From assembly GCA_966252435.1 (NCBI GenBank), contig CBINPE010000033.1, positions 1-38,547 on the forward strand: a stretch of 38,547 nucleotides of DNA, written 5' to 3'. The position numbers and the translations under genes are program-made. The notes beneath the pieces were generated by a model that did no database searches, was not told where the DNA came from, and worked only from the letters and a program-made list of their open reading frames with translations. The stretch comes from an uncultured Burkholderiales bacterium (lineage in GTDB: Bacteria > Pseudomonadota > Gammaproteobacteria > Burkholderiales > Burkholderiaceae_C). This document shows, one piece after another, positions 11,588 through 38,484 of the stretch. The number at the start of each line of letters is the position of its first letter. The first letter of the stretch is position 1.

Positions 11588-12268
11588 ATGCAACTCTTCA
11601 TTGGCAACAAAAACTACTCGTCCTGGTCCATGCGCCCCTGGGTGCTGATGAAGCAAGCCGGCATTGCCTTCGAAGAGGTGATGGTCCGCTTCGACAGCTT
11701 CCAGAACGATTCGAGCTTCAAGACGGCCATGTCCAAGGTTTCGCCGGTGGGCAAGGTGCCGGTGCTGGTGGACGACGGCTTCGCGGTGTGGGACACCCTG
11801 GCGATCGCCGAGTACCTGGCCGAGCGCTTCCCCCAGCACCAGCTGTGGCCCGCCGATCCCAAGGCCCGGGCACGGGCACGCAGCGTGTGCGCCGAGATGC
11901 ACTCCGGCTTCCCCCACCTGCGCAGCCACATGGGCATGAACATCGAGGCCTACCTTCCCGAGGTGGGTGAGCGCATCCTGCGCGAGAACGGCGCGGTGCG
12001 GGCCGACGTCGACCGCGTGATCGACCTGTGGACCGAGGCCCTGACGGCCTTCGGCGGCCCGATGCTCTTCGGGCGCTTCAGCATCGCCGACGCCTTCTTC
12101 GCCCCGGTGGTGATGCGTTTCAAGACCTACGGTGTGCCGACCCCGGGGCCGGTCGAGGCCTATGTGCAGAACGTGGCCGCCCTGCCAGGTGTGCAGGCCT
12201 GGGTGCAGGACGCGCTGCGGGAGAAGGACTTCCTGGCCTTCGAAGAGCCCTACCGCCGCAACCGATGA
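11588..12268 (+). CDS. Glutathione S-transferase family protein
   Basis: Start at the ATG of MQLFIGNKNYSSWSMRPWVLMKQAGIAF…; the listed ORF extends upstream in a non-coding-looking stretch. It has a thioredoxin-like N-terminal domain and a GST C-terminal domain. The stop overlaps the cca start (ATGA). Confidence 0.85.
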   Translation: MQLFIGNKNYSSWSMRPWVLMKQAGIAFEEVMVRFDSFQNDSSFKTAMSKVSPVGKVPVLVDDGFAVWDTLAIAEYLAERFPQHQLWPADPKARARARSVCAEMHSGFPHLRSHMGMNIEAYLPEVGERILRENGAVRADVDRVIDLWTEALTAFGGPMLFGRFSIADAFFAPVVMRFKTYGVPTPGPVEAYVQNVAALPGVQAWVQDALREKDFLAFEEPYRRNR

Positions 12269-13503
12269 CACTGCGGAAATGGTTGGTGGGGGGCGCCGTG
12301 CGCGACGCCCTCATGGGCCGTCCCGTGGAGGACCGCGACTGGGTGGTGGTGGGGGCCTCTCCCCAGGAGATGCTGAACCGCGGCTTCCTGCCGGTAGGGC
12401 AGGACTTCCCGGTGTTCCTCGACCCCGTGACGCACGAGGAGGTGGCCCTGGCGCGCACCGAGCGCAAGACCGCCCCGGGCTACCACGGCTTCAGCTTCCA
12501 TGCTGCCCCCGACGTGACGCTCGAGGAAGACCTGCGCCGCCGCGATCTCACGATCAACGCCATGGCACAGGACGAGTCGGGCACGCTGGTCGACCCCTAC
12601 GGCGGCCAGCGCGACCTGGCGGCCAAACTGCTGCGCCACGTGTCCGAGGCCTTCTGTGAAGACCCGGTGCGTATCCTGCGGGTGGCGCGCTTCGCGGCGC
12701 GCTGGCCGGACTTTCGGGTCGCCCCTGAGACCGAGGCCTTGATGCGCCAGATGGTGCGAGACGGCGAGGTCGACGCGCTGGTCAGCGAGCGGGTGTGGCA
12801 GGAGCTGTCGCGCGGGCTGATGTCGGCGCAACCCTCGCGCATGTTCGCGGTGCTGCGTGACTGCGGTGCACTGGCACGCCTGCTGCCGGAGGTCGACCGC
12901 CTGTGGGGCGTGCCGCAGCGGGCCGAGCATCACCCCGAGGTCGACACCGGCGTGCACGTGATGATGGTGGTCGACACGGCGGCACAGTCACAGGCTCCCT
13001 TGAGCGTGCGCTTCGCCTGCCTGGTGCACGACCTGGGCAAGGGGACCACGCCGGCCGCCGAGCTGCCGGGCCATCCCGACCATGAGCCGCGCGGCGCGGC
13101 GCTGGTGGCCGGCCTGTGCGAACGGCTGCGCATCCCCACCGAATGCCGTGCCCTGGCCGAGGTGGTGGCGCGCGAGCATGGTGCGGTGCACGGCAGCGAG
13201 CGCCTGGACGCCGCGGGCGTGGTGCAGCTACTGACGCGCTGCGACGCACTGCGCCGTCCCGAGCGCTTTGGCGAGGTGTTGTGGGCTTGCGAATGCGATT
13301 CCCGAGGCCGGCTGGGTTTCGATGCGGCGCCCTACCCGCAGCGCCAGGCACTGTGGCGGGCGCTGCAGGCGGCCCGCAGCGTGGACACCGCCCGCATCGC
13401 GCGGGACTGCGCGCAGCGGGGGCTGACAGGCGTGCGGGTGGGCGAGGCGATCCAGGCGGCCCGGACCGCGGCCGTGGCGAGCGTCCTGGGCGCACCGGCC
13501 TGA
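12265..13503 (+). CDS. cca: Multifunctional CCA-adding tRNA nucleotidyltransferase with HD phosphohydrolase domain
   Basis: N-terminus MTLRKWLVGGAVRD…DRDWVVVGA…RRRDLTINAMA is the class-II nucleotidyltransferase head. A C-terminal HD motif is present (…LVHDLGKG…). Confidence 0.9.
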   Translation: MTLRKWLVGGAVRDALMGRPVEDRDWVVVGASPQEMLNRGFLPVGQDFPVFLDPVTHEEVALARTERKTAPGYHGFSFHAAPDVTLEEDLRRRDLTINAMAQDESGTLVDPYGGQRDLAAKLLRHVSEAFCEDPVRILRVARFAARWPDFRVAPETEALMRQMVRDGEVDALVSERVWQELSRGLMSAQPSRMFAVLRDCGALARLLPEVDRLWGVPQRAEHHPEVDTGVHVMMVVDTAAQSQAPLSVRFACLVHDLGKGTTPAAELPGHPDHEPRGAALVAGLCERLRIPTECRALAEVVAREHGAVHGSERLDAAGVVQLLTRCDALRRPERFGEVLWACECDSRGRLGFDAAPYPQRQALWRALQAARSVDTARIARDCAQRGLTGVRVGEAIQAARTAAVASVLGAPA

Positions 13504-14372: not shown

Positions 14373-15293
14373 ATGCAACGCACCTTCGATCCCATGCAGC
14401 TGGGCAGCATCGAGCTGTTCTGCCAGGCGGCCACGCTGGGCAGCTTCACCGCCGCTGCGCAGCAGGCCGGCGTGACGCCGGCCGCGGTGAGCCGCTCGGT
14501 CAGCCGGTTGGAAGCGCGGCTGGGCGTGCGGCTGTTCGTGCGCTCCACGCGGCAGATCCGGCTCACCGTCGAAGGACAGCTGTACCACGAACATTGCCTG
14601 CAGGCCCTCGCGCAGATCGCGGAGGCAGGCCGGCTGGTGACGGGCCAGCAGGCTGCACCGTCCGGCGTGCTGCGCATCAGCGCGCCGACCACGTATGCCC
14701 ACCACCGACTGTTCCCCTTGCTGCCGCGGTTCGCCGAGGCCTTTCCCGAGGTGCGGCTGGAAGTCAGCGTGTCGAACCGCAACGTCGACCTGGTCGAAGA
14801 CGGGTTCGACCTGGCGATCCGGGCCGGCACCCCACCCGACTCCAACCTCGTGATCCGTCCGCTGGAAAGCCTGAGCCTGGGTGTGTTCGCGGCCCCTGCC
14901 TATCTCCGGCGCCACGGCAGGCCGCGCACGCCGCAGGACCTGAATGACCACGACTGCATCCAGTTCATCCTGCCCAGCACCGGCCGGCCCCTGCCCTGGC
15001 TGTTCAGAAGCCGGCAGGGGGAGGACGAAGAGCACCTCCCTGAAGGCCGCGTCAAGGTGCTGGGTGACGTGCTGGGGTGCCTTCATCTGGCGCAGGCGGG
15101 TGGCGGGATCGCCCAGGCCTTCCACGTCATCGCCGACAAGGCGGTGCGCAGCGGCGAGCTGGTCGAGCTGCTCAAGCCTTATGCAGGGCGCACCCGCGCC
15201 TTCTCCATCCTCTATCCGCGCAACCGGCATCTCGCCGCGCGGGTGCGGGCCTTCGTCGATTTCCTGCTGGCGGCCCGCAGTGGGGGGATGTGA
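14373..15293 (+). CDS. LysR-family transcriptional regulator, divergent from the DJ-1 gene
   Basis: HTH (LFCQAATLGSFTAAAQQAGVTPAAVSRSVSRLEARLGVRLFVRSTRQIRLTVEGQ) plus a substrate-binding domain. It is in frame with a long spurious upstream ORF (13116-15293); the start is taken at the ATG at 14373. Confidence 0.85.
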   Translation: MQRTFDPMQLGSIELFCQAATLGSFTAAAQQAGVTPAAVSRSVSRLEARLGVRLFVRSTRQIRLTVEGQLYHEHCLQALAQIAEAGRLVTGQQAAPSGVLRISAPTTYAHHRLFPLLPRFAEAFPEVRLEVSVSNRNVDLVEDGFDLAIRAGTPPDSNLVIRPLESLSLGVFAAPAYLRRHGRPRTPQDLNDHDCIQFILPSTGRPLPWLFRSRQGEDEEHLPEGRVKVLGDVLGCLHLAQAGGGIAQAFHVIADKAVRSGELVELLKPYAGRTRAFSILYPRNRHLAARVRAFVDFLLAARSGGM

Positions 15294-15350
15294 CTTCCCG
15301 TAAAGTGGCGCGATCCACTTCGTTCGCATCGCCGCAGGGCGTCATTCCGC

Positions 15351-17045
15351 ATGAAGGACTTCCATTCGTTGATCGCTCGCCTGCTGACCCTGGCATGGCT
15401 GCTGCCGACCCTCTGCGCCGCCCAGGCACCGGCCGAGCCTCCCTCCTCGCCGCAGACTCCCCGCTACACCTTTTCATGGCCACTCGACGAGAGCACCCCC
15501 AAGCCGCGTGGCGGCACGACCCACGGCGCGCCCGTCACGCTGGACCGCGGGCCCAGCGAGGCCTGGAAAGCCCTGCAGGCGCCGGGCCTGAGTGCGCTGG
15601 AGCGTGACCGCCGCGCCATCCTCGCGATGGCGGGCACCTACCGCGTCAGTTTCGATTTCCTCGAGGTCGACAGCTATGGCGCAACGCCGTCCGCACAGCA
15701 GCCGGCGCGCGCCCCCTACCAGTCCTGGGGCACGGAGAAGGTCTACGTCGACCAGGACGGCCGGGGACGGGACGGCGTGATCAGCCTCGTGCACATCCTG
15801 GAGATGCGCGTCGTCGATGCACAAGGCGTGGCCAGCGAGCCGATGGTGGTCAAGCACTGGCGTCAGGACTGGACGTATGAGCCAGGCGCGATCGTCGAGT
15901 ACCTGGGCCGCGATCGTTGGCGCCGGCGCGTGCTCGGCCTGGAAGAGCGGCGCGGCGCCTGGCTGCAAACGGTTTACCAAGTGGACGAGTCGCCCCGCTA
16001 CGCGAGCCTGGGGCGCTGGCAGCACAACACCAGCTTCTCGACCTGGCTGAGTGGCGAGACCTGGCGGCCACTGCCACGGCGCGAGTGGAGCGTGCGCCAG
16101 GACTACCACGCCCTGGTCGGCACCAACCGCCACACCATCGGCCCCACCGGCTGGACGCAGGAAGAGAACAACCTCAAGACCGTGCTCACTCCCCAACGGC
16201 ATGTCGACCCCGCCCATCCCTACCTGGGACGCGAATACGGCATCGCACGCTACGAGCGGCTGGTTCCCACCGGCGGCGAGGGCGGCACGGACTTCGCCGC
16301 CGCCGACCGCTACCAGGCGCGCACACGCCTGTTCTGGCAGCGCGTGCGCAATGCCTGGTCGGATGCCTTCGTCCGGCATGGCACCGTCACCTTGCGCGGG
16401 CCAGTCGACCAGCTCGGCCTGTTCGTCCCCCTGTTCGAACACGCCGAGCAGATCGCATCAGAAGACAAGGACAGCGCAAGCCCCGGCGAGGCGCAGCTGA
16501 TCCGCTCGGTCCTGACCGACATGGGCGTGCCTGAACGCAAAAAGGGGAGTGCGACATCCGCACTCCCCTTTGCCCTCCCCGAGCAAACTCAACGCAGCTT
16601 GACCAGGCCATTGAGCACCTGGTCCAAACCGCCGAACACCGAGATCTTGTCGATGCGCTCGGCCACGCGCTCCAGCGTCTCCAGCTCCTTCAGGCGCAGG
16701 GCGACGGGGTTGTCCTCCATCACCTTGGCGGTGTTGAGCAGGGAACGCGTCGCCGCGGTTTCCTCGCGGCGGCGGATCACGTTGGCCTCGGCCGACTTCT
16801 CGGCCTCGACCACCCGGGCCAGGATGGTCTTCATCTCGCCCGGCAGCACGATGTCCTTCACGCCCGCGCTGTCCAGCTCCAGCCCGAAGGCGGAGAGCTT
16901 GCGACGCACGTGGCTGGTCACTGCCTCGTCGATCAGCGACTTGTTGTCGAGCAGCGCGTCCAGCGTGCGGGTGCCCACCGCTGCGCGCAGCGCGAACTGC
17001 AGCTCGCGGTACAGGTGCTCGGCCGGCTTGTTCAGTTGCGCGTAG
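15351..17045 (+). CDS. Hypothetical exported protein. The nominal ORF runs to 17045, but its last ~150 codons are antisense to the convergent SPFH gene and are probably not genuine.
   Basis: Signal peptide MKDFHSLIARLLTLAWLLPTLCAAQA, followed by about 380 aa of ordinary composition (…WRQDWTYEPGAIVEYLGRDRW…). No in-frame stop occurs before 17045. The frame reads through the terminator hairpin at 16544-16568. No family recognised. Confidence 0.5.
   Translation: MKDFHSLIARLLTLAWLLPTLCAAQAPAEPPSSPQTPRYTFSWPLDESTPKPRGGTTHGAPVTLDRGPSEAWKALQAPGLSALERDRRAILAMAGTYRVSFDFLEVDSYGATPSAQQPARAPYQSWGTEKVYVDQDGRGRDGVISLVHILEMRVVDAQGVASEPMVVKHWRQDWTYEPGAIVEYLGRDRWRRRVLGLEERRGAWLQTVYQVDESPRYASLGRWQHNTSFSTWLSGETWRPLPRREWSVRQDYHALVGTNRHTIGPTGWTQEENNLKTVLTPQRHVDPAHPYLGREYGIARYERLVPTGGEGGTDFAAADRYQARTRLFWQRVRNAWSDAFVRHGTVTLRGPVDQLGLFVPLFEHAEQIASEDKDSASPGEAQLIRSVLTDMGVPERKKGSATSALPFALPEQTQRSLTRPLSTWSKPPNTEILSMRSATRSSVSSSFRRRATGLSSITLAVLSRERVAAVSSRRRITLASADFSASTTRARMVFISPGSTMSFTPALSSSSPKAESLRRTWLVTASSISDLLSSSASSVRVPTAARSANCSSRYRCSAGLFSCA
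16533..16568 (-). terminator. Rho-independent terminator of the SPFH gene (stem ggggagtgcg/cgcactcccc, U-tract on the minus strand)
   Basis: Hairpin read directly at 16544-16568. The preceding A-run on the plus strand gives a U-tract on the minus strand. It sits 20 nt past the minus-strand stop at 16589-16591. Confidence 0.7.
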
Positions 17046-17722
17046 GCGGTGAGCACGTCCGTGTAGCGGAAGGTCGCCGACAGGTTGACGCGCAGGCCGA
17101 CCTTGTCACGGGTCAGGATGTCCTGGCCCGTCACCTCGACCGACTGCAGACGCAGGTCCACCTGCTCCACCGCCACGTTGCGGTTGAACTTCCAGAAGGC
17201 GTGTGAACCCGCGGGCAGCAAGCGGTTGATCTGGCCGTCCACCCACAGCAGGCCCACCGCGTGGTCGGGCACCTGGACCTGCAGCACGCCGCCCAGGCCG
17301 CTCACCGCACGCTGGCGCATCTGTGTCTGGATCAGCCGAGCGACCACCGGGGCAGGCACCTCGGCGGAGTCGGCCAGGTCGATCACCTCGACCGCGATGT
17401 CGAGCAGTCCCTTCCAGTAGAGGCGGCGCGTGCCCGGTGCCAGCACCTCGACGAGGATGCCGTTCTCAGTGCGCAGGCCGACCTGGTTCTCGCCCAGTTC
17501 GACACGCACGAAGTGCGCCGACACCACCTCGGGCTCGCAGGCCAGCAGGTACTCGCCGAGGCGGTGGTTGAGGGCCGGCTGCTCGAGGGCGAACCTCTCG
17601 ACCTCGGGGCGGCGCAGCCCGGTGAACAGCCAGTGCGTGCCTGAGGGCAGGACACGCTCGAAGTCCCCCTCGCGCAGCAGCAGGCCACGCTCGTTCTTCT
17701 TCACAATCACTCGATGGAACAT
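16589..17722 (-). CDS. SPFH/Band-7 (stomatin/slipin-like) domain protein
   Basis: Start at MFHRVIVKKNERGLL (complement of 17720-17722), preceded by AAAGGGGA. SPFH core (…ILTRDKVGLRVNLSATFRY…) and a coiled-coil C-terminus (AEKSAEANVIRRREETAATRSL…). Confidence 0.85.
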   Translation of the reverse strand: MFHRVIVKKNERGLLLREGDFERVLPSGTHWLFTGLRRPEVERFALEQPALNHRLGEYLLACEPEVVSAHFVRVELGENQVGLRTENGILVEVLAPGTRRLYWKGLLDIAVEVIDLADSAEVPAPVVARLIQTQMRQRAVSGLGGVLQVQVPDHAVGLLWVDGQINRLLPAGSHAFWKFNRNVAVEQVDLRLQSVEVTGQDILTRDKVGLRVNLSATFRYTDVLTAYAQLNKPAEHLYRELQFALRAAVGTRTLDALLDNKSLIDEAVTSHVRRKLSAFGLELDSAGVKDIVLPGEMKTILARVVEAEKSAEANVIRRREETAATRSLLNTAKVMEDNPVALRLKELETLERVAERIDKISVFGGLDQVLNGLVKLR

Positions 17723-18061
17723 GGAAGTCCCCTTTCGTTTTTCTTCATGACTCAAAACTAGGTGCCGTTACAGCCGGGGACGGCGGACGGCCAGGGCACG
17801 GAGAACGGGCATTACCCGGCACCAGCACCGCCTCGTCGCACCATGTGCATCGACAAGGCCTGCGCCGGCTGGAGGCAAGCAAGAACCCCGGCGGGCTGAC
17901 CGCGCGGGCCATCCCCGCTGACGGGCCGCCCGGCACGCGCCCCAGCCCGTCCGCAACGCGCCTCCCTGACGCGAACCGGGTGGGGCCGAAGGCGACGCCC
18001 GTGGCGTCCGCATCCGGCGGGTGGTCTTTCGACCGTCTTCACTGCGAGGAGACAGGTATGT

Positions 18062-18130
18062 CTGTCAGGAAGGATTCGAACCTTCGACCTACGTCTTTCC
18101 AGGACGTTGCTCTACCCAGCTGAGCTACAG
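18062..18130 (-). pseudogene. tRNA-like fragment / pseudo-tRNA
   Basis: The minus strand reads CTGTAGCTCAGCTGGGTAGAGCAACGTCCTGGAAAGACGTAGGTCGAAGGTTCGAATCCTTCCTGACAG. D-, anticodon- and T-arms are canonical, and the anticodon loop is CTGGAAA. The 3' acceptor strand CTGACAG has no complementary 5' strand. Instead it can pair with a downstream hairpin, gacag-gtatgt-ctgtc at 18051-18066. Confidence 0.4.
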
Positions 18131-18194
18131 TGGTGGCACCCCGGGAATCGAACCCGGCATCTCCTTGTGCAGGAGCCCCTCTCCAGAGGGCGCC
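18131..18194 (-). pseudogene. 64-nt tRNA-like minihelix with encoded CCA, not a canonical tRNA
   Basis: The minus strand reads GGCGCCCTCTGGAGAGGGGCTCCTGCACAAGGAGATGCCGGGTTCGATTCCCGGGGTGCCACCA. Acceptor-like ends pair (GGCGCCC with GGGTGCC), and a T-arm (CCGGG-TTCGATT-CCCGG) and CCA are present. The segment is about 10 nt too short to hold both D- and anticodon arms. It abuts the previous fragment. Confidence 0.35.
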
Positions 18195-18340
18195 GTTTCA
18201 GAACCCCACACCTTCAGGTGGCATGCCCCCAGCCGACCAGGACCGAATCCCGGGACCAGGCGCACCGGCGGGGCGGACGATCGTCCTAACCCCTGGCCTG
18301 TGAACGTGAAGGCGCATCAGGTTCCAAACTTGTCGCCCGC

Positions 18341-18916
18341 CTAACTCAGGCGGGATCCCTTGGGCAGGCGAGCCGCCAGCCACTCGTGCACGTCAGCCCG
18401 GATGTGCCTGCCTTCGAGCAGGAAGTTCTCGAAGCGGCTGGGCACATAAGGCAGGTACAGCAAGGGCATGCCGGCTTCCTCCGGGGTGCGGTCGGCCTTG
18501 CGTCCGTTGCACGGGCCGCAGGCCGACACCAGGTTCATCCAGCTCCAGCGGCCGCCGCGCGACTCCGGCAGGATGTGCTCGCACTGCAGCTCGCGCTCGG
18601 CAAAGCGCTGGCCGCAATAGGCACAGGTGAAACGGTCGCGGCGGAACAGCTTGAGGCTGCTAAACACCGGCACGATGTCGAACAGGTTGATTTGCGACGC
18701 ACCCGACAGGGCGATGATGGGATGGATCTCGATCACCGACTGACGGCCGGTGGCCGCGTTCCATCCGCCGCGCAGCGTGCACAAGGGGCCCGCGCCGTCG
18801 ACCCACGCCACCGCGTCGCGTGCGTAGTGCAAGGCGGCCTGTTCGCGGGTGATCCACGCTTGCGGCGTGCCCTGGATGTCGAGTTGCAGCACATGGGTGT
18901 GTGATTCAGGTTGCAT
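18341..18916 (-). CDS. HNH endonuclease family protein
   Basis: Start at MQPESHTHVLQLD (complement of 18914-18916), preceded by a strong AAGGAGG. C-terminal HNH zinc-finger signature (CAYCGQRF…EHILPESRGG…NLVSACGPCNGRKADR). The TAG stop lies inside a hairpin (cccgcc-tgagtta-ggcggg). Confidence 0.8.
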   Translation of the reverse strand: MQPESHTHVLQLDIQGTPQAWITREQAALHYARDAVAWVDGAGPLCTLRGGWNAATGRQSVIEIHPIIALSGASQINLFDIVPVFSSLKLFRRDRFTCAYCGQRFAERELQCEHILPESRGGRWSWMNLVSACGPCNGRKADRTPEEAGMPLLYLPYVPSRFENFLLEGRHIRADVHEWLAARLPKGSRLS

Positions 18917-18969
18917 GGGTTGCCCTCCTTTCTGCGGGCGATCGGTGGTGTCGATGCCATGCGCTTGGG

Positions 18970-19040
18970 GGTGACCGACCGGAGTCGAACCGGTACCTGT
19001 GGATTCACAGTCCACGGCTCTGCCATTGAGCTACGGCCAC
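18970..19040 (-). tRNA. tRNA-His (anticodon GTG)
   Basis: Minus-strand GTGGCCGTAGCTCAATGGCAGAGCCGTGGACTGTGAATCCACAGGTACCGGTTCGACTCCGGTCGGTCAC + C. The acceptor stem contains one G•U pair. Anticodon loop CTGTGAA. Position -1 is T rather than the usual encoded G. Confidence 0.8.
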
Positions 19041-19076
19041 ACCCAAGCACACGGGTGGTTGAACAAAGAAGAAAAG

Positions 19077-19152
19077 TGGTCTCGGCGGCAGGGCTCGAAC
19101 CTGCGACCCCGTGCGCCCAAGGCACGTGCGCTCCCAACTGCGCTACACCGAG
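19077..19152 (-). tRNA. tRNA-Pro (anticodon TGG), CCA encoded
   Basis: CTCGGTGTAGCGCAGTTGGGAGCGCACGTGCCTTGGGCGCACGGGGTCGCAGGTTCGAGCCCTGCCGCCGAGACCA. Clean cloverleaf. Confidence 0.9.
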
Positions 19153-19168
19153 ATGAAACAGGACAAAC

Positions 19169-19253
19169 TGGTCCCCTCGGTCCGAGTCGAACGGACATGC
19201 CTTGTGGCCACGGCTTCTGAGACCGCTGCGTCTGCCAATTCCGCCACGAGGGG
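19169..19253 (-). tRNA. tRNA-Leu (anticodon CAG), class II with long variable arm, CCA encoded
   Basis: CCCCTCGTGGCGGAATTGGCAGACGCAGCGGTCTCAGAAGCCGTGGCCACAAGGCATGTCCGTTCGACTCGGACCGAGGGGACCA. Confidence 0.9.
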
Positions 19254-19285
19254 ATGAATGAATGAATAAATCAGCGAATGAACAC

Positions 19286-19361
19286 TGGTCTCGGTGGCAG
19301 GGCTCGAACCTGCGACCCCATGCTCCCGAAGCATGTGCGCTACCAGCTGCGCCACACCGAG
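19286..19361 (-). tRNA. tRNA-Pro (anticodon CGG), CCA encoded
   Basis: CTCGGTGTGGCGCAGCTGGTAGCGCACATGCTTCGGGAGCATGGGGTCGCAGGTTCGAGCCCTGCCACCGAGACCA. Confidence 0.9.
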
Positions 19362-19371
19362 AAAAAGAAAC

Positions 19372-19448
19372 TGGTGCCCCGTGCACGATTCGAACGTGCG
19401 CCCCCCGGCTTCGTAGACCGGTGCTCTCATCCGCTGAGCTAACGGGGC
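19372..19448 (-). tRNA. tRNA-Arg (anticodon ACG), CCA encoded
   Basis: GCCCCGTTAGCTCAGCGGATGAGAGCACCGGTCTACGAAGCCGGGGGGCGCACGTTCGAATCGTGCACGGGGCACCA. Confidence 0.9.
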
Positions 19449-19469
19449 AGAAAAAAGAAAGCCATCATC

Positions 19470-19545
19470 TGGCGTCGCGTGCGGGATTCGAACCCGCGTT
19501 CCCGGAGTGAAAGCCCGGCGTCCTGGTCCCCTAGACGAACGCGAC
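19470..19545 (-). tRNA. tRNA-Glu (anticodon TTC), CCA encoded
   Basis: GTCGCGTTCGTCTAGGGGACCAGGACGCCGGGCTTTCACTCCGGGAACGCGGGTTCGAATCCCGCACGCGACGCCA. The D-arm (GTCTAG…AGGAC) resembles the E. coli tRNA-Glu arrangement. Confidence 0.9.
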
Positions 19546-19713
19546 AGAACGAAAAACTCCCATGACGGTTGTGCTCCAGCGCGAGTGCGGGTGACCCGCC
19601 CAGCGCCCTCGCTGCACGATGCCGATCTGTCCGGCAGCGCACATCCCGGCCACCCCGTGCTGAAGGGGGCTTGGCTCGACCGTGTGCTCGAACACACCCG
19701 TCATGAGACTGTT

Positions 19714-19789
19714 TGGAGCGGACACCGGGTCTCGAACCCGGGACCTCGACCATGGCGTGGTCGCGCTCTACCTGCTGAGCCATGTCCGC
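19714..19789 (-). tRNA. tRNA-Gly(GCC)-like with an atypical anticodon loop (ACGCCAT, i.e. A32-C33 instead of U33), CCA encoded
   Basis: GCGGACATGGCTCAGCAGGTAGAGCGCGACCACGCCATGGTCGAGGTCCCGGGTTCGAGACCCGGTGTCCGCTCCA. Perfect acceptor stem, U73, canonical 76-nt cloverleaf. Only positions 32-33 deviate from the usual loop. Confidence 0.65.
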
Positions 19790-19940
19790 TGAAAATTTGA
19801 GCCATGCGCAATGCCTGCGAGCGCGCAGCCCTCAGGCCCGCACACGGCTCGTGGTGCAGGCGGCCCACCCAGTTGTGGGATCACACCTGCGGCAAATTGT
19901 TAAAGAGCGTGGCGGGTGGCAGCACCACCCCAGACTTGAG

Positions 19941-19984
19941 ACAAAAAACAAAAAGGCCCGGATTCCTTGACAGGGATCCGGGCC
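19941..19984 (-). terminator. Strong Rho-independent terminator on the minus strand (stem ggcccggat/atccgggcc, then UUUUUGUUUUUUGU)
   Basis: Hairpin 19955-19984 read directly. The plus-strand A-run 19941-19954 gives a U-tract on the minus strand. The same stem sequence recurs at 37719-37745 on the plus strand. Confidence 0.75.
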
Positions 19985-20399
19985 TCGAAGAGAAATTCGA
20001 GTCGCAGGGTGTGCGCCTAAGCGCTCCCCATGCCCGGGTGCGGAAAATCCTCCTCCCAGCCCTGTGCGGCAAAGCAGGGTCGGCCAAGGTGGGCCGGATG
20101 CCGACTGGCGTTGGCCAACGTGACGCCGCCCAGCGTGCAACCCAGACCCGCCTGCTTGCCGGCGAACGAACGCAGGCCCTGGAAGGGCAGCAGACGTTGC
20201 AGGGAGGAGCGATTGGTTTTCACGATGGACTCGGTGGAAGTGAGGGATTGAAGAAGGGGTCAAACGAAGCTGCATCTGATGCAGCGAGATCGAACTGTAA
20301 AGATTCTTCACTTTTCGGTCAAGCACTTCTTCGTTATTTTTTTCGAAGGCGTGAAACGGCTCGTTAAGATCCCCGCTCCGCAGCCAGCCTTTGAGGACC

Positions 20400-20894
20400 A
20401 TGCCGACGCCCTGGGTCTCATCACTTGTCCATCGCAGCCTGGACCGCCTGTGCACCGCCTTCAGCCTGCTGGTACTCCCCCTCGCCACGCTGCTGCTGTT
20501 GCAATGGCCGCTGCGTGATGTGCTTGGCGCCTATTCGCGCCAGGCCAACGACATGGCCCAATGGGTCTTCGCGCTGTACGTGGCCGTGGCCCTTCGCCAC
20601 ACCACGCGGCAAGGCCGCCACCTCGCTGCGACGGCGGTGAGCACCCGCTACTCCGAGGCCTGGCGACGGCGCCTGGCACGCTGGGGACATGCCTTGGCCG
20701 TGCTGCCCTTCGCCATCTACGTGCTCGTCTCGGGGGCACTGATGGTGTGGCGGGCACTGCAAGCCACCGAGGCCTTTCCTGATACGGGCAATCCGGGCTA
20801 CTTCATCGTCAAACTCAGTGCGTGGCTGATGGCATTGCTGATGGCCCTGCAGGCCCTGGCCGACTTGGGCACCCCGCGTGCAGGCACCCCATGA
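20400..20894 (+). CDS. dctQ: TRAP transporter small permease (DctQ family)
   Basis: 164-aa hydrophobic protein with 4 predicted transmembrane segments. ATG at 20400 preceded by GAGGA. The stop overlaps the dctM start (ATGA at 20891-20894). Confidence 0.8.
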   Translation: MPTPWVSSLVHRSLDRLCTAFSLLVLPLATLLLLQWPLRDVLGAYSRQANDMAQWVFALYVAVALRHTTRQGRHLAATAVSTRYSEAWRRRLARWGHALAVLPFAIYVLVSGALMVWRALQATEAFPDTGNPGYFIVKLSAWLMALLMALQALADLGTPRAGTP

Positions 20895-22309
20895 ACGGCC
20901 TTTGGATGTTCGCCGCAGCGATCGTGCTGACGGTGTCGACGGGCCTGCCCGTCTATGCGGTGCTGCTGCTCGTGAGCGCGGCCTTCGCCTTGGCCGGCGT
21001 GTGCACAGGCGCCATCGACGCCAGCCTGCTGCAGGCGCTGCCGACGCGGCTGGTCGGCTTGCTGGAGCACGACCTGCTGCAAGCCCTGCCCTTGTATGCC
21101 TTGATGGGATCCTTGCTCAACCGGCTGCCGCTGGCCGGCGAACTGCATCGGGTGGGCCATCGGCTGACGGCTCGCAGCCCGGCGGCCGCCGAGCTGTCCG
21201 CCCTCGGCGTGGGCGCGCTGCTGGCGCCGATGAATGGCTCGGTGGGGGCCAGCCTCCATACGCTGTCGCGGCGGGTGGTGCCACAGGTGCTCCAGGCCGG
21301 AGCGCCGCCCGCGCAAGCCGCGGCCACCTGGTGCGTGGCCAGCACCCTCGGCGTCCTGATCCCGCCGTCCCTGGTGCTCCTGCTGCTGGGCGATGCCATG
21401 ATGCGCGCACACACGGAGGCCGTGAACCTCAGCGGCGCCGCCGTGCGCATCATCAACACGCAGGATGTGATGCACGCGGCGCTGTTGCCCGGCGCCCTGA
21501 TGCTGCTGTTGTCGATGGCCTGGGTGGCCTGGCGCGACCGCCATCGCCCACGCGGCGACGTGCGTGTGACACGCGGCCAGATCGCCACCACGGTGGGCGT
21601 GGCGCTGACCCTGGCCATCCTGCTGGGCAGTGTCGCGCTGGGACGCCTGTATGCCGTGGAGGCCGCCGCCACGGGCTGCGCCTTGCTCACGCTGTACGCC
21701 GCACTGCGGCGCCAGCTGGACCGCCCCCTGTGGCGTGCCGTGTTGGACGACACGCTGTCGCTGACCGGCATGCTGTTCGCGCTCCTGGTCGCCGCCACGG
21801 CGTTCTCACTGCTGTTGCGTGCCTTCGGGACCGACCATCTCATCGCGCAGGCCCTGGCGCTGCTGGGCGACCGCCCCTTGACGATGCTGGTGTGCGTGCT
21901 GCTGGGGCTGGTGGCCACCTCGTTCGTGCTGGATGCGTTCGAGATGATCTTCCTGGTGATTCCGCTGGTGATGCCCCCCGTGCTGAGGGTGGTGCCGGAC
22001 GCCGCATGGGTGGCCGCCCTCACGCTGCTGGTGCTGCAGGCCGGCTTCCTGCTGCCGCCCTTTGGCTATGCCGTGGTGATGGCCCAGGCCCTCAGCCCGG
22101 CACGGCCGGGCTGGCGCCCCCTGGCCCGCGCCTTGCTGCCGCACCTGCTGATCCTGCTGGGCCTGATCGCCGCCTTGCTGGCCTGGCCCGGCCTGGTCCA
22201 TTGGGGCCGCTCGGGAGAGGCCCTACCCACGGCCCAGGTCATGAGCGCGGAAGAAGCCGAGCGGCTGATGCAGCAGCAGGGCACGCAGCGCGACGAGGAA
22301 GCCCCATGA
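20891..22309 (+). CDS. dctM: TRAP transporter large permease (DctM family)
   Basis: 472-aa polytopic membrane protein. Start at MNGLWMFAAAIVLTV… Typical DctM length and hydrophobicity. No DctP binding-protein gene is adjacent. Confidence 0.88.
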   Translation: MNGLWMFAAAIVLTVSTGLPVYAVLLLVSAAFALAGVCTGAIDASLLQALPTRLVGLLEHDLLQALPLYALMGSLLNRLPLAGELHRVGHRLTARSPAAAELSALGVGALLAPMNGSVGASLHTLSRRVVPQVLQAGAPPAQAAATWCVASTLGVLIPPSLVLLLLGDAMMRAHTEAVNLSGAAVRIINTQDVMHAALLPGALMLLLSMAWVAWRDRHRPRGDVRVTRGQIATTVGVALTLAILLGSVALGRLYAVEAAATGCALLTLYAALRRQLDRPLWRAVLDDTLSLTGMLFALLVAATAFSLLLRAFGTDHLIAQALALLGDRPLTMLVCVLLGLVATSFVLDAFEMIFLVIPLVMPPVLRVVPDAAWVAALTLLVLQAGFLLPPFGYAVVMAQALSPARPGWRPLARALLPHLLILLGLIAALLAWPGLVHWGRSGEALPTAQVMSAEEAERLMQQQGTQRDEEAP

Positions 22310-22324
22310 GGGGCGCGGCGCGGC

Positions 22325-23356
22325 TCAGAGGTTGTTGCTCGCCGAGACCAGGTCGTTGTAGGCCTTGATGGCCTTCTCGACACTGCCTTCGACCATCCAC
22401 CCCGAGCCAGGCTTGAGCATCATGCGCTCGCCTTCGCTGTAGGGCACCCGGTCGCGGACACGGCGCACACGTTCCTTCGCGGCCTTGCGCATGTTCTCGG
22501 TGGCCGACTCGAAGAAGGTCCATTTCATCGACAGCTCCTCGCGATGCGCCTTGGCATAGGCCAGCGCCTCGTCGGTGATCTTCTCGTAGGCCGCCAGCTG
22601 TTCACCGGCCTTGGCAGCGTCGAAGTCTTCCTCGCCAATGGTGGCCGCTAGCTGCTTGGCCTTGCGCATCAGGGCCATCTGGAAGTAGGTCGCCTTGCGA
22701 CCCTCGGTCTTCTCGACCTCGGCCAGCTGGGCCTCGAGCACCGCGTCGTTCTCGGTCTCCAGCGCTTGCGAGAACGCCGTGCTGGCATGGCTGAAGGCAT
22801 CGAAACTGGCCGCCAGCAGCGTGTGCAGCTCCTTGCCCTTGGCGAACTTGTCGTCCTTGTAGTTCTCGCGGTCGTAGTAGGGGTAGGCCTCGGCCACCGC
22901 CTTGTCCAGGGCGCTCAGGGCTTCGATGTAGGCCTTGCCCGCCGCATCCAGGGTGGCCATCGCCGGCTTCATGGCAGCGGCCTGCGCGAAGGTCGTGCGG
23001 CACTTGGTCACGGCATCGCTGTTCATCGAGTACAGGCCGTAGACCACACGCTCCTTGCCGGTGGGACCGACCTTCATGTCCTTGACCCAGCTGCTGTAGC
23101 GCGCGATGGTGCGCTCGGCGCTGCCGTCCAGCTGGTTGAAGCAGTCGATGTAGCCATTGAGCTTGGCCGAGGCATCGGCCTGGGCAGGCGCCGCGGAAGG
23201 GGCGTCCGCCGAGCGGGACGCGCTCGGCGCAGCGGGTGCGCTGGTGTCGGCCTTTCGGTCGCAGGCGGTCAGCGTGACACACATCGCGACAGCCAAGACA
23301 AGGGACGGAGAATTGAAATTCATGACTTTCTTCGGGGAATGTAAAAAGGGAGGCAT
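22325..23356 (-). CDS. Lipoprotein, DUF3829/YiiG-like (tentative)
   Basis: Start at MPPFLHSPKKVMNFNSPSLVLAVAMCVTLTAC, with lipobox LTAC. About 320-aa mature protein, helical and rich in Ala, Lys, Glu. An alternative start lies 11 codons downstream (23323). Confidence 0.7.
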   Translation of the reverse strand: MPPFLHSPKKVMNFNSPSLVLAVAMCVTLTACDRKADTSAPAAPSASRSADAPSAAPAQADASAKLNGYIDCFNQLDGSAERTIARYSSWVKDMKVGPTGKERVVYGLYSMNSDAVTKCRTTFAQAAAMKPAMATLDAAGKAYIEALSALDKAVAEAYPYYDRENYKDDKFAKGKELHTLLAASFDAFSHASTAFSQALETENDAVLEAQLAEVEKTEGRKATYFQMALMRKAKQLAATIGEEDFDAAKAGEQLAAYEKITDEALAYAKAHREELSMKWTFFESATENMRKAAKERVRRVRDRVPYSEGERMMLKPGSGWMVEGSVEKAIKAYNDLVSASNNL

Positions 23357-38069: not shown

Positions 38070-38146
38070 GCCCGCGTAGCTCAGCAGGCAGAGCAGCCGC
38101 CTTGTAAGCGGCAGGTCGCGCGTTCGAGACGTCGCCGCGGGCGCCA
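38070..38146 (+). tRNA. tRNA-Thr (anticodon TGT) with an imperfect T-stem, CCA encoded
   Basis: GCCCGCGTAGCTCAGCAGGCAGAGCAGCCGCCTTGTAAGCGGCAGGTCGCGCGTTCGAGACGTCGCCGCGGGCGCCA. The acceptor, D- and anticodon arms are perfect. The T-arm pairs only 3 bp and has one extra nucleotide before the acceptor strand. Confidence 0.6.
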
Positions 38147-38243
38147 CCCACCAACACCAAGCCTCTGCGGAGCGAAAGCTCGAGAGGCGTAAATCGGCCG
38201 CAACGATTGGGCGGCACCGGAACCCGTCACCGGAACCATCCCT

Positions 38244-38321
38244 GGGGGTGTAGCTCAATTTGGGTAGAGCGGCCGCCTTGCAAGCGGCAGGTCGCAGGTT
38301 CGATCCCTGTCGCCTCCACCA
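38244..38321 (+). tRNA. tRNA-Ala (anticodon TGC), CCA encoded
   Basis: GGGGGTGTAGCTCAATTTGGGTAGAGCGGCCGCCTTGCAAGCGGCAGGTCGCAGGTTCGATCCCTGTCGCCTCCACCA. The Ala identity pair G3•U70 is present. Confidence 0.85.
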
Positions 38322-38326
38322 CACAT

Positions 38327-38402
38327 GCTCCGTTAACTCAGTGGCCAGAGTGCCGACCTGTCTCGTCGGAAGCCGCGGGTTCGAATCCCGCACGGGGCGC
38401 CA
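38327..38402 (+). tRNA. tRNA-Asp (anticodon GTC), CCA encoded
   Basis: GCTCCGTTAACTCAGTGGCCAGAGTGCCGACCTGTCTCGTCGGAAGCCGCGGGTTCGAATCCCGCACGGGGCGCCA. Discriminator G73. Confidence 0.88.
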
Positions 38403-38408
38403 GTCCAA

Positions 38409-38484
38409 GCCGTGATAGCTCAACCGGTAGAGCGCCAATCTGAAGAGTCGGGCGTTGGAGGTTCGAACCCTCCTCACGGAGCCA
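38409..38484 (+). tRNA. tRNA-Phe(GAA)-like, CCA encoded, with G1•A72 and A29•C41 mismatches
   Basis: GCCGTGATAGCTCAACCGGTAGAGCGCCAATCTGAAGAGTCGGGCGTTGGAGGTTCGAACCCTCCTCACGGAGCCA. Good D- and T-arms. The anticodon loop is CTGAAGA. Two stem mismatches lower confidence; it could be a pseudo-tRNA. Confidence 0.5.

Follow-up and report, generated by a model that had tools for sequence, protein, structure and literature searches.

A conserved ~540-nt RNA with two tRNA-like modules adjoins an SPFH/Band-7 gene in Burkholderiales

A stretch of 38,547 nucleotides (nt) from an uncultured Burkholderiales bacterium (contig CBINPE010000033.1 of assembly GCA_966252435.1; hereafter the window) holds, on its minus strand, two abutting tRNA-like pieces. 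They lie in ~620 nt devoid of any credible open reading frame (ORF), downstream of seven tRNA genes and a gene for an HNH endonuclease-domain protein and upstream of a gene for an SPFH/Band-7 protein. Are these pieces the scar of an integration and excision at a tRNA gene, or do they belong to a processed RNA with a function of its own? An earlier note on this DNA had left both answers standing. We find that the two pieces, here called M1 and M2, are modules of one conserved structured noncoding RNA, ~540 nt long, whose helices covary, and that this RNA accompanies the SPFH gene.

Two tRNA-like pieces are modules of one structured RNA

A scan of one genome per species yielded 80 loci with the HNH gene (in Piscinibacter, Rubrivivax, Aquabacterium, Ideonella, Caldimonas, Variovorax, Ramlibacter, and others), and in about half of them the stretch downstream of HNH is conserved in full, beyond the two fragments. 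An alignment of 36 loci (A1) shows conservation from window position 18302 to 17761; the RNA thus delimited fills the gap between the HNH and SPFH genes, its 3' end lying ~40 nt upstream of the latter (Table 1). The segment from 17756 to 18040, which the earlier note had listed as GC-rich noncoding DNA, is no mere spacer; it is the 3' domain of this RNA. The terminator hairpin that had been assigned to the HNH gene did not hold up either: a scan of 17650 to 18960 found no terminator-like or sigma-70-like sites, and the HNH stop codon is followed by the 5' portion of this same RNA.

On A1, RNAalifold predicted 95 pairs, 60 of them with compensatory changes. We counted pairs across the 36 sequences for this structure plus a 4-bp M2 acceptor (99 pairs in all) and compared the result with slid controls and 500 shuffles. 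The share of cells that were paired was 95.1%, versus 34 to 46% in the slid controls; 62 pairs had changed on both sides, versus 26 to 34, and the covariation score was 0.36, versus 0.05 to 0.08. None of the 500 shuffles reached the observed values. The fold comprises 17 helices. Changes on both sides affected 12 of the 16 pairs of hairpin H3 in the 5' domain and, in the 3' half, 5 of 5 pairs in H12, 11 of 12 in H16, and 7 of 7 in H17. A long-range helix closes the structure and is 96.5% paired in A1, with an A-C mismatch at its fourth pair in the window; since this helix is nearly invariant, covariation says little there. The loop of a GNRA-tetraloop hairpin between M2 and the 3' half is GAAA or GCAA in relatives.

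Across 39 related sequences, both tRNA-like modules show conservation along with compensatory changes. M1 reads GGCGCC ... CCGGG-UUCGAUU-CCCGG-GGUGCC-ACCA and abuts M2 directly. It is built from an acceptor stem of 6 bp, one of them G-U, a linker in which a GG is conserved, a single further hairpin (CUCCU-GCACA-AGGAG), a perfect T arm, a discriminator A, and an encoded CCA, which bears out how the earlier note had described this fragment. Because A1 is ragged at the M1 acceptor, we read the acceptors of the 39 sequences one by one. All 39 form a stem of 6 to 8 bp with at most one unpaired position, and 32 distinct stems were found (for example, GGUCAU/AUGACC, GGUGAUG/CAUCACC, GGUGCCG/CGGCACC, and GAACGAU/AUCGUUC); NCCA follows the acceptor in 36 of the 39. 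The T arm, helix 6 of the pair count, covaries. Having neither a D arm nor an anticodon arm, M1 is not a genuine tRNA. Truncated forms of the RNA were also seen: in L001 (4577-5040) M1 is missing, with M2 and the scaffold kept, and in L072 (1611-2069) M2 and the T arm of M1 are missing, either through a real deletion or as a metagenome assembly artefact.

M2 had been described as carrying D, anticodon, and T arms with no acceptor, and Rfam agrees: it matches the tRNA model with 50.2 bits, at model positions 5 to 66 only, so both acceptor strands are missing. ARAGORN calls it a 71-nt 'tRNA-Ser(gga)', an odd assignment that puts the anticodon at position 31. In most relatives a 4-bp acceptor, UGGA/UCCA, is present; in the window it is wholly lost. 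Across relatives M2 retains the D-loop GG, U8, A14, G15/C48, and the T-loop, while its 'anticodon' loop varies freely (GAU, CAU, GGA, GCA, or, on a short stem, a tetraloop), and ARAGORN labels it as a tRNA for Ser, Ile, Gly, or Ala depending on the locus. With an acceptor of 0 to 4 bp, where 7 bp are needed, and an unconserved anticodon loop, M2 is not a genuine tRNA. The small hairpin that follows it, GACAG-ACAUAC-CUGUC, exists as previously noted, and a hairpin occupies this position in roughly half of the relatives.

M1 and M2 are thus neither decoding tRNAs nor a scar. The covariance models proposed as a check placed no normal, complete tRNA at the locus, and neither module is complete. 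ARAGORN found no transfer-messenger RNA (tmRNA) in the window, and tmRNA, HEARO, riboswitch, and group I intron identities for the RNA had no support from Rfam at E values up to 10. Pseudogenes left by integration and excision would fit pieces that adjoin a tRNA cluster and an HNH gene, and an M2 that lacks acceptor strands. We give that explanation next to no chance, and the comparison of orthologous loci refutes it. The element is present and covarying in the orthologs, the same modules occupy the same place, fixed relative to SPFH, in about 45 loci across genera, the M1 stems differ in sequence while remaining paired, and both modules lie within a larger structure that covaries. Pfam detected no integrase domain in the 29 larger window ORFs scanned, and a search of the window for further copies of the 64-mer M1 returned a single copy.

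Table 1. Coordinates of the structured RNA, its parts, and its neighbors in the window
Feature	Position	Strand	Basis
Whole conserved structured RNA, ~540 nt, from CACAGG to GCUGUAACGGCACC (17774-17761)	17761-18302	minus	Alignment A1
5' domain: helices H1/H2 (GGC..GGGGU / GCCCC.GCC, 18267-18298) and long hairpin H3 (18223-18265)	18223-18298	minus	RNAalifold, pair count
Long-range closing helix, 5' strand GCCA (GCCG in relatives), partner CGGC at 17764-17767	18219-18222	minus	A1 columns 177-180 versus 689-692
M1, tRNA-like minihelix, 64 nt	18131-18194	minus	Sequence reading and 39 relatives
M2, tRNA-like element with D, anticodon, and T arms and tRNA tertiary-contact bases	18066-18130	minus	Rfam tRNA, ARAGORN, alignment A2, helices 7-10
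Optional hairpin after M2, GACAG-ACAUAC-CUGUC	18051-18066	minus	Sequence; relatives
GNRA-tetraloop hairpin GGUCGAAAGACC, nearly invariant, helix 11	18023-18034	minus	A1, A2, pair count
3' half: variable hairpin H12 (17922-18010) and long multi-helix 3' domain H13-H17 (17771-17920)	17771-18010	minus	RNAalifold, pair count
SPFH/Band-7 ('slipin family') protein, 377 aa, PF01145	16589-17722	minus	Pfam; PDB stomatin matches
HNH endonuclease-domain protein, 191 aa, PF14279/PF01844	18341-18916	minus	Pfam; preceded by AAGGAGG
tRNA cluster, 7 genes (Gly, Glu, Arg, Pro, Leu, Pro, His)	18968-19789	minus	ARAGORN and Rfam tRNA
Candidate weak sigma-54 -24/-12 box, TGGAAC-N5-GCGC, just upstream of the RNA	18312-18326	minus	Read from the sequence

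The RNA is tied to the SPFH gene, not to the HNH gene

We asked which of its two neighbors the RNA belongs to. Full-length hits of the RNA profile, in many genera of the Burkholderiales, lie solely directly upstream of an SPFH gene, on the same strand, wherever the contig reaches. They comprise 40 genome loci, one of them cut by a contig end and one with its middle missing, and 6 metagenome contigs, 2 of which are cut by a contig end. (The pattern used to search metagenomes, GGTCGMAAGACCAN{1,3}GCCG, proved too unspecific; 6 of 120 contigs had the RNA among the matches listed.) In loci L037 and L067 and in metagenome contig L187, HNH is 1 to 2 kb away from the RNA, yet the RNA is still attached to SPFH, while some 40 HNH loci without SPFH have no such RNA. 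The RNA tracks SPFH and is missing where HNH stands without it; the partner is therefore SPFH rather than HNH. The second answer given by the earlier note, a tRNA-like RNA that is processed and has its own function, points the right way, with processing as a prediction, and is too narrow: the unit has ~540 rather than 64 nt and is tied to SPFH.

These counts also bear on the idea that the RNA guides the adjacent HNH protein as omega RNA (HEARO) does IscB. In most loci no more than ~40 nt separate the HNH stop codon from the start of the RNA, and the HNH domain is closest to those of IscB and Cas9. We nevertheless consider such a role very improbable. About 40 of the 80 HNH loci do without the RNA, and the RNA, or a leader in its place, occurs without an adjacent HNH gene not only in the three loci just named but also in Burkholderia, Escherichia coli, Photobacterium, and Subdoligranulum. 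Apart from its HNH domain the protein has ~90 N-terminal residues and, according to Pfam, no RuvC domain.

The HNH gene has a constant place of its own. Its flanks are as first described, with the Shine-Dalgarno sequence AAGGAGG in front, the SPFH gene on one side, and the tRNA cluster on the other (Pfam and ARAGORN). The protein has 1,581 homologs, the best 120 of which are 78 to 100% identical to it. In 74 of the 80 loci HNH follows the last tRNA of a same-strand array, after a gap of ~40 to 60 nt in most, and a median of 7 and a maximum of 23 tRNA genes lie within 4 kb of it. HNH is thus the 3'-terminal gene of a tRNA array and is not specific to the RNA, and the seven-gene cluster of the window is a short form of arrays that reach 23 genes in relatives. 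The suggestion that HNH is a selfish passenger finds no support in a protein that is ~80% identical across genera, keeps its place after the array, and occurs with or without the RNA. Chromosomal same-strand arrays of up to 23 tRNA genes were observed in Sphaerotilaceae and related Burkholderiales (L008, 1848-3948; L015, 1532-3958; L012; L037; L010). HNH genes are known to reside in mycobacterial tRNA arrays (Morgado and Vicente 2018, PMC5966550). As in those units, the arrays seen here are dense, on one strand, and have HNH as their most constant protein-coding companion; unlike them, as they have been reported from Mycobacterium and its phages and plasmids, the present arrays are chromosomal, lie in Burkholderiales, and are coupled to RNA-repair modules.

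The SPFH protein has no evident membrane segment, and its residues 184 to 374 are stomatin-like; the PDB stomatin entries that it matches contain 16 to 64 chains. An AlphaFold2 model of the protein was of low confidence (mean pLDDT, 60.7; pTM, 0.37). Its N-terminal half seems to repeat the pattern 'hxVxVxxxExGLLxxdGxxxxxLxPGxHxxf', a beta-hairpin motif that normally opens an SPFH domain, three times (residues 1 to 33, 71 to 103, and 146 to 179).

The window as a whole is a chromosome fragment with ~68% G+C and ordinary chromosomal neighbors. A megablast search of 15000 to 23000 against phages and plasmids gave nothing useful, a phage protein search gave no SPFH match, and the sole match in viral contigs was one E. 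coli-like SPFH locus; the RNA-SPFH unit does not look like a phage element. A gene of the CCA-adding enzyme/poly(A) polymerase family (PF01743, PF12627, and an HD domain; 12028-13503, plus strand), called as a 412-amino-acid gene in L081, lies ~5 kb from the tRNA-like RNA; ordinary chromosomal synteny is the probable reason for this closeness. The very end of the window has a further tRNA cluster (Thr, Ala, Asp, Phe; 38070-38484, plus strand), which may run on beyond it. Elsewhere, a gene for an MbnB/TglH/ChrH-type RiPP precursor-modifying enzyme (PF05114; 28688-29824, plus strand) is adjoined by small ORFs without a Pfam match, and this region may be a RiPP cluster.

RNA-repair modules, distant homologs, and known tRNA-like RNAs

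What follows HNH in relatives places the RNA among genes of RNA repair. Three arrangements were found after HNH: the RNA, SPFH, and the RNA ligase gene rtcB; Ro60 (Rsr), the Y RNA YrlA, and RtcB; and RtcB alone. RtcB follows in 30 of the 39 SPFH loci and is missing or out of range in 8 further RNA-SPFH loci, the window included. The order in L037, the sole SPFH locus with Ro60 after SPFH, is RNA, SPFH, Ro60. In the sister loci YrlA scores 74 to 82 bits, versus a gathering score of 69 in Rfam. In L008 (4600-7974) a Ro60/Rsr ORF (PF25045, PF05731), YrlA (RF02553), and RtcB occupy the slot of the SPFH-RNA module, and the same module occurs in L010, L012, L015, L019, L026, L029, L033, L057, L064, and L070. 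Matches to the P1/P4-type phage RNAs isrK (51 bits) and C4 antisense RNA (73.5 bits), ~2 kb downstream of the SPFH-RtcB module in L013 (8335-8540), suggest a neighboring prophage-like element.

SPFH homologs that are more distant are also preceded by leaders with tRNA-like parts. In Burkholderia cenocepacia (SPFH homolog, 63% identity) a sigma-54 box, TGGCAC-N5-TCGC, is followed by a homologous 5' domain, M1 without CCA, M2 with a GAAA tetraloop as its anticodon loop, SPFH, and RtcB. Photobacterium (39%) has two complete tandem tRNA-like elements and then SPFH and RtcB, and Subdoligranulum (37%) has two T arms and then SPFH and RtcB. The E. coli homolog (55%) comes after a sigma-54 box and a leader that has one T arm, and a nucleotidyltransferase gene follows it, with no RtcB downstream; this leader is present in 1,632 of 5,426 complete E. 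coli genomes (~30%), with no RefSeq feature annotated under it. Sigma-54 boxes precede the proteobacterial leaders, clearly as TGGCAC-N5-TCGC in Burkholderia and E. coli, whereas the box of the window has no counterpart in most Sphaerotilaceae relatives. In E. coli 13C1079T (L208, 4313-7728; the same island in L204), an island between yjbD and lysC contains the sigma-54 box TGGCACGCTTCTCGC, a ~340-nt leader that has one T arm and no annotation, the slipin-family SPFH gene, the nucleotidyltransferase gene, and a convergent zeta-toxin gene. A covariance model of the 5' domain (R1) was built from an alignment (A4) that includes the B. cenocepacia homolog L205, and since L205 was used in building R1, its score of 62.9 bits is by construction. 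R1 missed the leaders of E. coli, Photobacterium, and Subdoligranulum, so scaffold homology is claimed within Burkholderiales only.

A 2016 abstract by Burroughs and Aravind reportedly deals with scaffolding cofactors in the form of SPFH/Band-7 modules that include 'a novel tRNA-like molecule'. A class named b7a-tRNA, short for 'band 7-associated tRNA', predicted by these authors, is described second-hand in a preprint by Wang, Chen, Wolin, and Xiong (bioRxiv 10.1101/312249). According to the passages of the preprint that deal with it, b7a-tRNA lies beside Band-7 and RtcB, is functionally redundant with YrlA, with which it is occasionally swapped next to Ro60, and 'strongly resembles an authentic tRNA', with no experimental validation. 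Our literature search found the name in no other paper, Rfam 15 has no family for it, and RefSeq does not annotate it. In the terms of that description, the present RNA is likewise a tRNA-like noncoding RNA adjoining a Band-7/SPFH gene, in the window and in all full-length hits; it lies in RtcB repair operons of most relatives and is combined with Ro60 in L037. Its M2 resembles a tRNA (50 bits on the Rfam model), though without an acceptor stem in the window. M2 would thus be the b7a-tRNA proper, as judged from features read in the sequence and the second-hand account of the class, and the element is real, looks functional, and would be a member of this predicted class. Going beyond what the preprint's description of b7a-tRNA contains, the tRNA-like element is here one module of a ~540-nt RNA in which M1 adds a second mimic with a CCA end, a GNRA hairpin is present, and long-range pairing closes 5' and 3' domains that covary; this unit is also attached to a tRNA array and an HNH gene, in a window without RtcB. 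As far as checked, the second mimic with its encoded CCA, the closed scaffold, and the coupling to tRNA arrays and HNH are possibly new.

The other obvious comparison is with YrlA. Like it, the present RNA mimics tRNA and belongs, in relatives, to RtcB repair operons, and sister genomes put Ro60-YrlA-RtcB in the same slot after HNH. Unlike YrlA, it is five times larger and has SPFH, not Ro60, as its partner gene; and where YrlA is one permuted tRNA closed by a Ro-binding stem, M1 and M2 each close on their own. On the YrlA model RF02553 the RNA scores 27.7 bits, far from the gathering score, in a match that runs across the M1/M2 junction, where the order of T arm, acceptor, and D arm accounts for it; it does not indicate membership, and the window has no Ro60 homolog. 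M1 also resembles the tRNA-like domain of tmRNA, as well as mascRNA: it has an acceptor stem and a T arm, its D region is reduced, and it ends in CCA. Unlike these, it is embedded in a larger RNA, and its match to the Rfam mascRNA-menRNA family is not significant (20 bits; E value, 0.24).

The GNRA hairpin was considered as the Ro60-binding motif of YrlA (GNCGAAN0-1G), which GUCGAAAG fits, and this identity was rejected: the loop is GCAA in 11 of 39 relatives, and Burkholderia has GUCCGCAAGGAC. A low-GC metagenome contig (L144, 60-310) has YrlA-like T and D arms and then GGGUCGAAAGACCAUUGCCGG directly upstream of an ORF that, by eye, resembles Ro60/TROVE. This hairpin is identical to that of the SPFH-associated RNA and could be due to chance, the contig having been selected by that pattern; for the same reason we discount it as evidence for a Ro60-binding motif.

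A possible role in tRNA repair

We favor, with some confidence, a role in which the RNA serves the SPFH protein as a Y-RNA-like cofactor or scaffold during tRNA repair, as the sequence and gene order suggest. The support consists of the covarying structure, the strict linkage of RNA and SPFH, the presence of RtcB in most relatives, the alternative Ro60/YrlA/RtcB module, the leaders of more distant SPFH homologs, and the published accounts of b7a-tRNA and YrlA. According to this proposal, the RNA would be cotranscribed with the SPFH mRNA. In Burkholderia and E. coli a clear sigma-54 promoter would drive this; in the window, transcription would continue past the tRNA cluster and HNH or start at the weak sigma-54 box. 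It would then be excised as a stable RNA, like YrlA and YrlB in the rsr-yrlBA-rtcBA operon. Both tRNA mimics would sit in a closed junction, held there by long-range helices. M1, as a minihelix of acceptor and T arm with ACCA at its end, would be an ideal substrate for RNase P and the CCA-adding enzyme, and M2 would provide an L-shaped body with a noncoding 'anticodon' loop and little or no acceptor stem. Bound to an oligomeric SPFH protein, the RNA could present tRNA-like surfaces to RtcB, RNase P, the CCA-adding enzyme, and modification enzymes, and could thus act as a scaffold, a cofactor, or a decoy where tRNA damaged by nucleases is sensed or repaired, as a counterpart of Ro60 with Y RNA.

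It is conceivable, though doubtful, that the design is grander still. The b7a-tRNA could be the most recognizable part of an undescribed large ornate RNA (a closed multi-helix scaffold of ~500 nt around both mimics) in a Ro/Y-RNA-like or vault-like ribonucleoprotein with a cage-forming, soluble SPFH protein, devoted to surveillance and repair of tRNA damage. RNase P and 3' processing would release or nick M1, and arrays, HNH, and particle together would constitute an anti-ribotoxin island.

Several points weigh against the proposed cofactor role. What has been shown is conservation and synteny, and all steps beyond these are inferred. The match to the published b7a-tRNA rests on the second-hand description of that class. 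There is no homolog of RtcB or Ro60 within the 38.5-kb window, so the link to repair rests, for the window, on relatives, and R1 reached none of the leaders outside Burkholderiales. The encoded CCA is not universal, being missing in L066, L138, Burkholderia, and Photobacterium, and L001 lacks M1 altogether. Finally, a position in the 5' leader of SPFH would also fit a cis-regulatory role.

This last alternative, a very large riboswitch-like or protein-binding 5' untranslated region that controls the expression of SPFH (and RtcB), seems to us rather unlikely. Its cues could be tRNA-handling enzymes, the state of damaged tRNA, or the SPFH protein itself. The RNA always lies on the same strand directly upstream of SPFH, followed by a strong Shine-Dalgarno sequence (AAGGAGAA); a sigma-54 promoter upstream of it in Burkholderia and E. 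coli makes it the 5' untranslated region of the operon, and the scan of the window gave it no promoter or terminator of its own. However, we saw no terminator, U-tract, or conserved anti-Shine-Dalgarno segment, and the spacer between the RNA and the Shine-Dalgarno sequence is poorly conserved. With its ~540 nt, 17 helices, and two tRNA mimics, the RNA far exceeds known leaders, and the sister module has a trans-acting RNA, YrlA, within the same kind of operon. Roles in cis and in trans are not mutually exclusive.

It is also possible to see the bulk of the RNA as a processing scaffold that sets free M1, by itself or together with M2, as a small RNA that ends in CCA and is aminoacylated or serves as a substrate in another way, such as a minihelix donor or decoy. 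The minihelix, discriminator A, and CCA, kept in most relatives, are features recognized by RNase P, the CCA-adding enzyme, and some synthetases. In Mycobacterium smegmatis, RNase P cuts the acceptor-like stem of YrlA, to which CCA is then added (Chen et al. 2014, PMC4201824), and this is a precedent for the processing predicted at M1. We judge such a product to be improbable as the purpose of the RNA, given the losses of CCA and of M1 listed above, the lack of conserved identity elements in acceptors that vary freely in sequence, and flanking domains that are as conserved as M1.

Under the cofactor or scaffold role that we favor, the RNA bears on a wider question, namely, the targets of RtcB repair operons in bacteria and the tasks of the SPFH/Band-7 and Ro60 partners in these operons. 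Since ARAGORN reports M2 as an odd tRNA in the window and in relatives, such modules risk being annotated as genuine tRNA genes. A covarying RNA of ~540 nt gives the predicted class concrete boundaries, helices, and predicted processing sites. Leaders that are possibly related, with homology unproven, precede the homologous SPFH gene in B. cenocepacia and in ~30% of complete E. coli genomes, and these species would offer tractable hosts.

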